24,000 bases of DNA from positions 1-24,000 of the forward strand of contig NZ_WBZB01000052.1 in NCBI RefSeq assembly GCF_009017255.1, in the 5' to 3' direction. How positions within the stretch are numbered: position 1 is the first letter of the stretch; each line of letters opens with the position of its first letter. Under the pieces are notes generated by a model. The model was not told the DNA's origin. It did no database searches and was given only the letters and a program-made list of their open reading frames with translations. Positions 1,908 to 2,183 of this stretch are shown piece by piece. A program made the translations under genes and the position numbers. Source of the DNA: Alkaliphilus serpentinus (GTDB taxonomy: Bacteria > Bacillota > Clostridia > Peptostreptococcales > Natronincolaceae).

Positions 1908-2183
1908 TTAACAAGTGGGTTCACTACCAGTGAGCCAGCCTTTAATTATGGCATAGGCTCAGCCAACGCCTGTCTTAACAACTATTGCATCGAAGGGACA
2001 GTTCTTCATGCAGCCTCCACATTCTATGCAATTGTCTTGATCTAAAAATGCAACCTTATGATCTTCAATAATCAAAACATTATGGGGACAAACCTCTATA
2101 CAGCCACCACATCCAGAGCATTTATCTGGGTATAGCTTTATATTGGCAACTCCCTTTATATAGCTTAATGACATATATTCCAT
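1908..2183 (-). CDS. hgcB: HgcB, 2x[4Fe-4S] ferredoxin partner of HgcA, read through an in-frame TGA (1961..1959) as putative selenocysteine; 91 aa
   Basis: Two CxxCxxCxxxCP motifs (CSGCGGCIEVCP, CIECGGCMKNCP), located 7-10 nt downstream of hgcA. The ORF-track product stops at ...KTGVG-TGA. The frame stays open for 16 more codons (AYAIIKGWLTGSEPTC) to TAA at 1910..1908. Start taken at ATG 2183; the track uses TTG 2186. Confidence 0.7.
1921..1961 (-). other. In-frame UGA of hgcB plus downstream SECIS-like structure
   Basis: On the minus strand, UGA is followed 25 nt later by hairpin UCACU-GGU-AGUGA (1933..1921), with G-U in the apical loop. An alternative fold is UGAGCC(1961-1956)/GGCUCA(1936-1931) with inner GCC/GGC. 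No folding energy was computed. Confidence 0.4.

Follow-up and report, generated by a model that had tools for sequence, protein, structure and literature searches.

A probable selenocysteine codon in the hgcB gene of Alkaliphilus serpentinus, downstream of a predicted Cys-Sec motif in hgcA

The hgcAB operon and its surroundings

The window analysed here, a stretch of 24,000 nucleotides that corresponds to positions 1 to 24,000 of contig NZ_WBZB01000052.1 of Alkaliphilus serpentinus, contains on its minus strand an hgcB gene located immediately downstream of hgcA, which carries the cap-helix motif N(V/I)WCA(A/G)GK. The elements of hgcB and of its downstream boundary are the following:

1908 to 2174, minus strand: full-length hgcB coding sequence of 88 aa, with two [4Fe-4S] motifs, the predicted Sec72, a final Cys88 and a TAA stop codon (from translation, profile score and alignment)
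1959 to 1961, minus strand: in-frame TGA, the probable selenocysteine (Sec) codon U72, equivalent to Cys73 of ND132 (Cys in 32/32 homologues, TGA in 24 other hgcB genes)
1911 to 1958, minus strand: the 16 codons after this TGA, AYAIIKGWLTGSEPTC, a C-terminal helical extension that ends on the only Cys of the tail (from consensus match and codon comparison)
1882 to 1899, minus strand: ribosome-binding site (RBS) AAAGGAGG (1899-1892) and ATG (1884-1882) of the next gene, the boundary of hgcB beyond its TAA (from the sequence)

The hgcB frame opens at ATG 2174, reaches the TGA at 1961-1959 after 71 aa, and continues through the codons GCC TAT GCC ATA ATT AAA GGC TGG CTC ACT GGT AGT GAA CCC ACT TGT up to TAA 1910-1908, which places the putative Sec at residue 72 of 88. 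An initial annotation of this DNA, whose coordinates and sequence strings were all found correct, had counted 75 aa before the TGA. This length comes from an alternative start, TTG 2186, and stands for that reading only, because the N-termini of HgcB homologues follow the pattern M-[ASP]-L-x-Y-I-K-G-V-A and favour ATG 2174. The same annotation had remarked that the RBS of the next gene starts only after the extended TAA, and the positions of both elements agree with it.

With U written as C, the 88-aa product scores 114.6 bits against the NCBIfam profile NF040864 (cut-off 99) and covers positions 1-85 of its 93, leaving the last 8 unmatched. Two CxxCxxCxxxCP motifs for [4Fe-4S] clusters, CSGCGGCIEVCP and CIECGGCMKNCP, are present, and all eight of their cysteines are invariant in an alignment of 32 full-length homologues. 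These residues (C19/22/25/29 and C49/52/55/59), together with position 72, correspond to the ND132 numbering (20/23/26/30, 50/53/56/60 and 73) minus one. HgcB proteins keep a further conserved Cys about 12 residues past the second cluster motif, and it is this position that the TGA occupies, in the context GVG-U-A. The NCBI entry for the A. serpentinus protein is a truncated product of 71 aa named "4Fe-4S binding protein", which, since it stops there, indicates that hgcB is mis-annotated in that database snapshot.

A second in-frame TGA is found at the beginning of hgcA, where two elements can be defined:

2193 to 3341, minus strand: hgcA from its true N-terminus, 382 aa from ATG 3341 after the RBS AGAGGTGA, with the predicted Cys12-Sec13, an NVWCAAGK cap helix and a transmembrane domain
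3272 to 3286, minus strand: SECIS-like hairpin CCUCCA-GUU-UGGAGG, 16 nt past the UGA (z-score -2.29, -8.4 kcal/mol)

A mechanical listing of open reading frames gives hgcA as 2193-3278, with a TTG start (3278) that falls inside this hairpin. The protein, which contains INVWCAAGKG, scores 380 bits against NCBIfam NF040863 (cut-off 275). Its N-terminal extension is encoded as MNDEMKSQGKSC-TGA-GPSETTSSLEDKIL, that is, MNDEMKSQGKSC-U-GPSE, and the resulting motif, SCUGP, has its Cys-Sec codons at 3308-3306 (TGT) and 3305-3303 (TGA) of the minus strand. The same Cys-TGA extension, followed by a hairpin at the same position, occurs in 11 hgcA loci of relatives, where the hairpin arms show compensatory changes (UCUCUA/UAGAGG or CUUCUA/UAGAAG, for example) and the residues around the CU vary among these Clostridia (SCUGP, ACUV, SCUT). 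As in the HgcA CU-motif selenoproteins (NF040863; Haft and Gwadz), the Cys-Sec pair belongs to an N-terminal extension that precedes the earlier annotated start. In contrast to the PCUGP published for that class, invariant in the 20 proteins examined there, A. serpentinus shows SCUGP; moreover, the class concerns the partner protein of HgcB, not HgcB itself. The Cys-TGA of hgcA is the published HgcA CU form, and it speaks independently for the decoding of UGA as Sec in this organism.

Regarding the genes around the operon, a protein of 200 aa with no match in Pfam or NCBIfam is encoded directly after hgcB (1282-1884, minus strand), ahead of azlC and azlD. An equivalent reading frame sits at the same position in the metagenomic locus L002 (856-1470, 74% identity) and in Alkaliphilus peptidifermentans (locus L008, around 4208-4785, 59% identity), and was not found in the other hgcB loci. 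Divergently from hgcAB, the plus strand at 3479-6091 encodes Ku, an ATP-dependent DNA ligase and a protein with a LigD primase-polymerase domain, a set for non-homologous end joining in which the ligase frame (4290-5135) overlaps the polymerase frame listed from 5060. Further away, genes for lactate utilisation are clustered on the minus strand (13060-20185): those for a lactate permease, a GntR regulator, EtfB, EtfA, an FAD-linked oxidase and a LarA-type lactate racemase. Past azlD, the contig finishes in dense short tandem repeats (38-235), with a 14-nt unit, ATTCCCTATTACTT, in 4.6 copies matching at 98%, plus 7-nt units; an independent assembly ends at this same block.

Conservation of the TGA codon and of the extension

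The alignment of HgcB proteins directly supports the correspondence between the TGA and a conserved Cys. The initial annotation had placed this codon on the Cys that follows the second cluster, and it does coincide with the near-invariant Cys of GVGC, present in 32/32 full-length homologues; in 58 metagenomic homologues the equivalent codon is TGC or TGT. All 32 full-length homologues share the consensus GVG-C-A[YAS]AII.GWLTGSEP.C, which the extension of A. serpentinus matches in 15 of its 16 residues, including a final Cys88 before the TAA, the terminal Cys that had been pointed out from the sequence. The conservation that had been anticipated for AxAIIxGWLxG is likewise seen.

Besides A. serpentinus, 24 further hgcB genes, spread over at least 20 genomes or metagenome-assembled genomes (22 of the 24 genes come from named ones), have a TGA at the identical codon, and in all of them the UGA precedes A.AII.G[WK]LTG... 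and a Cys. Among them, the truncated metagenomic homologues L001 and L002 show the same TGA codon, and then AFAIIKGWLTGSEPNC-TAG and AYAIIKGWLTGSEPNC-TAA. A genome collection, when scanned with a DNA pattern that fits only the TGA form, gave 22 further loci, every one of them a genuine hgcB (22/22), which is a recovery far beyond chance. These loci belong to Acidaminobacter, Wukongibacter, Alkaliphilus peptidifermentans, Natronincola peptidivorans, Fusibacter, Brassicibacter, Tissierella, Syntrophomonas and related metagenome-assembled genomes. The survey of hgcB genes annotated as truncated that had been proposed thus yields GVG-TGA endings that recur in Clostridia and in metagenomes. An NJ tree built on about 80 residues places the Sec-type hgcB genes in at least five groups among the Cys-type ones, and is too weak to count the origins of Sec.

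One of the Sec-type tails, ASAIIRGWLTGSEPKCGC, comes from a metagenome-assembled genome with the label Solirubrobacterales (Actinomycetota) (locus L005, 3862-3905). An 'uncultured Clostridium' genome (L011) has exactly the same tail, which could reflect either a mis-binned contig or horizontal transfer.

The recurrence of the codon bears on the idea that the TGA arose from a TGC or TGT codon through faulty sequencing or assembly, or that UGA has been reassigned to another amino acid in the whole genome. All that speaks for it is the single base that separates TGA from TGC or TGT. In an independent assembly (run SRR5176986) the gene is likewise called up to this TGA, and relatives from unrelated projects share TGA at the same codon, both of which go against an error. 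As for a reassignment, TGA is otherwise an ordinary, although rare, stop codon in the window, where it ends 3 of the 25 long open reading frames. Altogether, either version of this explanation appears scarcely credible.

The codons that follow the TGA carry a signature of translation. Compared with those of relatives, the 16-codon extension departs at 7-10 codons and shows 5-10 synonymous and 0-2 non-synonymous codon differences; with Natronincola, as many as 10 of the 16 codons differ, all 10 synonymously and none non-synonymously. Over the 30 nt past the hgcB TAA, only about one third of the positions remain identical to those of the relatives. Mostly synonymous differences up to the stop codon, together with the collapse of similarity after it, directly support that the peptide encoded after the UGA is under purifying selection and is, therefore, translated.

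These comparisons can be set against the simplest reading of the gene, in which the TGA would be a genuine stop and hgcB would encode a 71-aa ferredoxin lacking the Cys73 position and the tail; the likeness downstream would then be the relic of a recent nonsense mutation, in a gene already inactive or decaying. Such a reading has in its favour the 71-aa database product and the use of TGA as a stop elsewhere in the window. However, the same 'nonsense' codon would have to be shared by 25 genes from several lineages, the purifying selection described above extends over the 16 codons past it, and the stop codon beyond the extension is always placed after the conserved Cys.

A SECIS-like hairpin downstream of the UGA

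An RNA hairpin can be drawn within the extension:

1918 to 1936, minus strand: SECIS-like hairpin GGCUCAC-UGGUA-GUGAACC, with its 5' arm at 1936-1930, the loop region UGGUA at 1929-1925 and its 3' arm at 1924-1918

The core of this motif, UCACU-GGU-AGUGA, had already been noticed downstream of the UGA and was located at 1933-1921, 25 nt past the codon, whereas the extended form starts 22 nt past it. The stem contains one mismatch (C1934/A1920), and U1929-A1925 can close a GGU loop. The element is composed of the codons for W/K-L-T-G-S-E-P, which in the window read W-L-T-G-S-E-P.

Such a hairpin is predicted in 25/25 TGA-type hgcB genes, whereas only about 1/58 of the Cys-type genes from metagenomes that were taken for comparison show it, so that its restriction to the UGA-type genes is directly supported; the statistics of this comparison ignore phylogeny and GC content. 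On average, and without correction for these two factors, 6.2 of the 7 stem positions are paired in TGA-type genes versus 3.8 of 7 in Cys-type genes, and the contiguous pairs counted from the loop amount to 5.56 versus 0.48 (Mann-Whitney p = 9e-12). The codon choice in genes that encode the identical peptide LTGSE follows the same trend: Ser is AGU and Leu is CUY in all 18 TGA-type genes, and among the 12 Cys-type genes AGU appears once and CUY four times. AGU and CUY are the codons that the stem needs. In the alignment of TGA-type genes, 88% of the cells are paired, a value that falls to 8-37% when the partner column is slid, and compensatory changes are found in three stem pairs (C-G to U-A in three sequences, G-C to A-U in four). 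This conservation throughout the family, the covariation and the absence of the motif from Cys-type genes argue that the hgcB hairpin is a real element.

With respect to the bacterial SECIS consensus of Zhang and Gladyshev, as far as it is summarised in PMC13188914, the GGU loop, the stem (5 bp, then 2 bp beyond the mismatch) and the 30-nt spacing between UGA and loop fit. The energy of the copy in the window, -5.0 kcal/mol for the core alone and -7.2 kcal/mol once the flanks are included, narrowly misses the criterion of -7.5 kcal/mol. Gram-positive bacterial SECIS elements (PMC13188914; SaoC in Haft's paper) similarly lie within the coding sequence, 16-37 nt past the UGA, and have a perfect or near-perfect stem of 5-7 bp with a GGU or G-rich apical loop; the copy of A. 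serpentinus departs from them in its internal C-A mismatch and in an energy slightly short of that value. It is the weakest hairpin of the family, the relatives ranging from -7.0 to -13.9 kcal/mol, and the GAA codon is the reason for its C-A mismatch. Searching Rfam with the whole window returned no hit at gathering thresholds, and around the operon no more than hits at chance level, without any match to a curated bacterial SECIS family. The weakness of this local hairpin is a further point for a genuine stop codon, although a hairpin specific to the TGA-type genes and kept by compensatory changes would be hard to reconcile with a decaying gene, and the stop reading as a whole looks highly improbable.

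On the other hand, UGAGCC (from 1961) is complementary to GGCUCA (1936-1931) in the 5' arm of the hairpin, so that a fold sequestering the UGA competes with the latter. This alternative fold had been pointed out in the initial annotation, and the pairing exists, being even the minimum-free-energy structure given by RNAfold in the window. The UGAG/CUCA pairing is possible in 87.5% of the cells across the family, with zero covariation. Since it follows automatically from the invariant UGA-GC columns plus the hairpin arm, it was not counted as a feature.

The same pairing enters into the proposal of a selenium switch, in which cells supplied with Se would make full-length HgcB and cells without Se would mostly terminate at the UGA, so that methylation would track Se, and the weak hairpin and the UGA-sequestering fold would tune the response. 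The presence of two UGA codons to be passed in one operon, the marginal hairpin of the window and the availability of the UGAG/CUCA pairing across the family are compatible with such a switch. However, the alternative helix shows the lack of covariation and the automatic origin just described, and partial termination is common to any bacterial Sec codon, which makes it a consequence of recoding and not a distinct mechanism. A dedicated switch is thus very unlikely.

Sec-type HgcB and its proposed handling of mercury

The reading that best accounts for these data is that TGA 1961-1959 is recoded as Sec in replacement of an essential Cys and that hgcB of A. serpentinus is a selenoprotein gene, to which we would assign, from the sequence comparisons, a probability of about 0.9. 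The Cys alignment, the 24 further TGA genes, the synonymous changes of the extension, the TGA-specific hairpin and the CU motif of hgcA all point in the direction already suggested by the initial annotation, and this interpretation has been published before. The preprint of Haft (bioRxiv 10.1101/2022.07.06.499078) reported Sec at residue 73 of HgcB in 17 of 266 sequences, as well as a CU in a previously missed N-terminal extension of most HgcA proteins; to judge from its citation in PMC11588087, it later appeared as Haft and Gwadz (J Bacteriol 2023). A 2026 review also lists HgcB with the motif GVGU. A. serpentinus shares with the Sec-type HgcB of Haft and Gwadz (NF040864, GVGU, WP_250697400.1) the probable Sec at the position of the ninth invariant Cys (73), in the context GVG-U-A, the apparent truncation at the UGA in databases and the adjacency to an hgcA with the CU motif in its N-terminal extension. 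It differs in its C-terminal end, since that paper describes nearly every HgcB as ending in Cys-Cys and A. serpentinus has a single Cys 16 residues past the Sec. The gene is very probably a mis-annotated further member of a published class of selenoproteins, and the interpretation is not new. Given that the central discovery had already been published by Haft and Gwadz, the value of the present analysis lies in confirmation and refinement. What goes slightly beyond that paper are the conserved SECIS-like hairpin, the tail end with a single Cys and the generally shorter tails of Sec-type proteins; the text of the preprint describes no SECIS for HgcB, and both the element and the codon signature come from the present analysis.

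The recoding would be brought about by SelB and Sec-tRNA(Sec), recruited to UGA 1961-1959 by the hairpin 22 nt downstream, and the product would be an 88-aa dicluster ferredoxin with Sec72 in place of the essential Cys73 of characterised HgcB and with Cys88 at its end. The hgcA gene, immediately upstream, would be recoded likewise at the Cys-Sec dipeptide of its N-terminal extension. SelB-dependent insertion of Sec is what we infer, and Sec72 would be equivalent in function to Cys73. The selenoprotein trait is plausible for the genus, as 11 selenoproteins have been described in the congener Alkaliphilus metalliredigens (PMC1794560), which proves nothing for A. serpentinus. A search for selA, selB, selC and selD within the window found neither a tRNA nor a sel reading frame.

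Among all the loci gathered, a motif scan detected selD only in L026, an unrelated metagenome contig. At 233-1572 of this contig, a Cys-type hgcB is immediately followed by a selD gene that is itself Sec-containing (...CSGGG-TGA-GAKVGPGGL...), an adjacency that constitutes a direct genomic link of hgcAB with selenium activation.

The reference protein that has been characterised by experiment is HgcB of Pseudodesulfovibrio mercurii (Desulfovibrio desulfuricans) ND132, which has the same two CxxCxxCxxxCP motifs with identical spacing. In ND132, the change of Cys73 to Ala abolishes methylation, and Cys94 or Cys95 are singly dispensable, whereas the double mutant loses 95% of the activity, so at least one C-terminal Cys is needed and one suffices (PMC7305189). 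The same work already modelled the C-terminal helical extension and reported that HgcB tails vary between orthologues. Unlike A. serpentinus, ND132 carries Cys at position 73 and a long flexible tail leading to Cys94-Cys95; the A. serpentinus protein goes no further than the helical extension and has one Cys there. By analogy, Sec72 would take the role proposed for Cys73, that is, the binding of Hg(II)/CH3Hg+ in a hand-off with a C-terminal thiol (model of PMC7305189). The partner thiol would be Cys88, the only one available, at the end of the helical extension, which would make a Se/S pair. A single Cys in the tail is consistent with the sufficiency of one C-terminal Cys in ND132.

The read-through had been expected to restore the missing tail of HgcB, and it does so in part: the helical extension and the Cys of EPxC are recovered, but the DCS...CC end, with the equivalents of Cys94/95 of ND132, is absent. 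The protein ends in ...SEPTC-TAA, with its single Cys aligned to that of EPxC and no terminal Cys-Cys pair. The same ending on the EPxC Cys, lacking a DCS...CC tail, is found in four genes, those of A. serpentinus, L001, L002 and Natronincola (L009). In the sample analysed here, tails end in CC in 32 of 55 Cys-type proteins versus 10 of 24 Sec-type ones; the C-terminal Cys-Cys pair is not strictly defining for HgcB. The median tail length is 17 residues in Sec-type proteins (n=24) and 25 in Cys-type proteins (n=55), a difference (p = 2e-6) uncorrected for phylogeny and sampling.

A last question is related to the consequences of these genes for the study of mercury methylation. Unless they allow for read-through of the UGA, surveys of hgcAB in genomes and metagenomes will misjudge Sec-type genes as truncated or as devoid of key residues, a misjudgement to which hgcA and hgcB of A. 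serpentinus are both exposed; the hgcB hairpin offers a simple DNA signature for the Sec-type hgcB. HgcAB makes neurotoxic methylmercury, and Cys73 of HgcB is essential, with a chemical role that is still unsettled. Natural Sec variants, especially one that combines a single Sec with a single Cys in the tail, would be a clean construct to ask how residue 73 and the C-terminal thiol handle mercury. A bolder and rather doubtful possibility is that several clostridial lineages gained Sec at the Cys73 position along with the loss of the flexible multi-Cys tail, and that Sec72/Cys88 represents a minimal Se-based site for the hand-off of Hg(II)/CH3Hg+, replacing Cys73 plus Cys-Cys; with the Cys-Sec of HgcA, it would form an all-selenium mercury relay. 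If this were true, the A. serpentinus type would be a mechanistic variant of HgcAB, beyond a mere swap of Cys for Sec.
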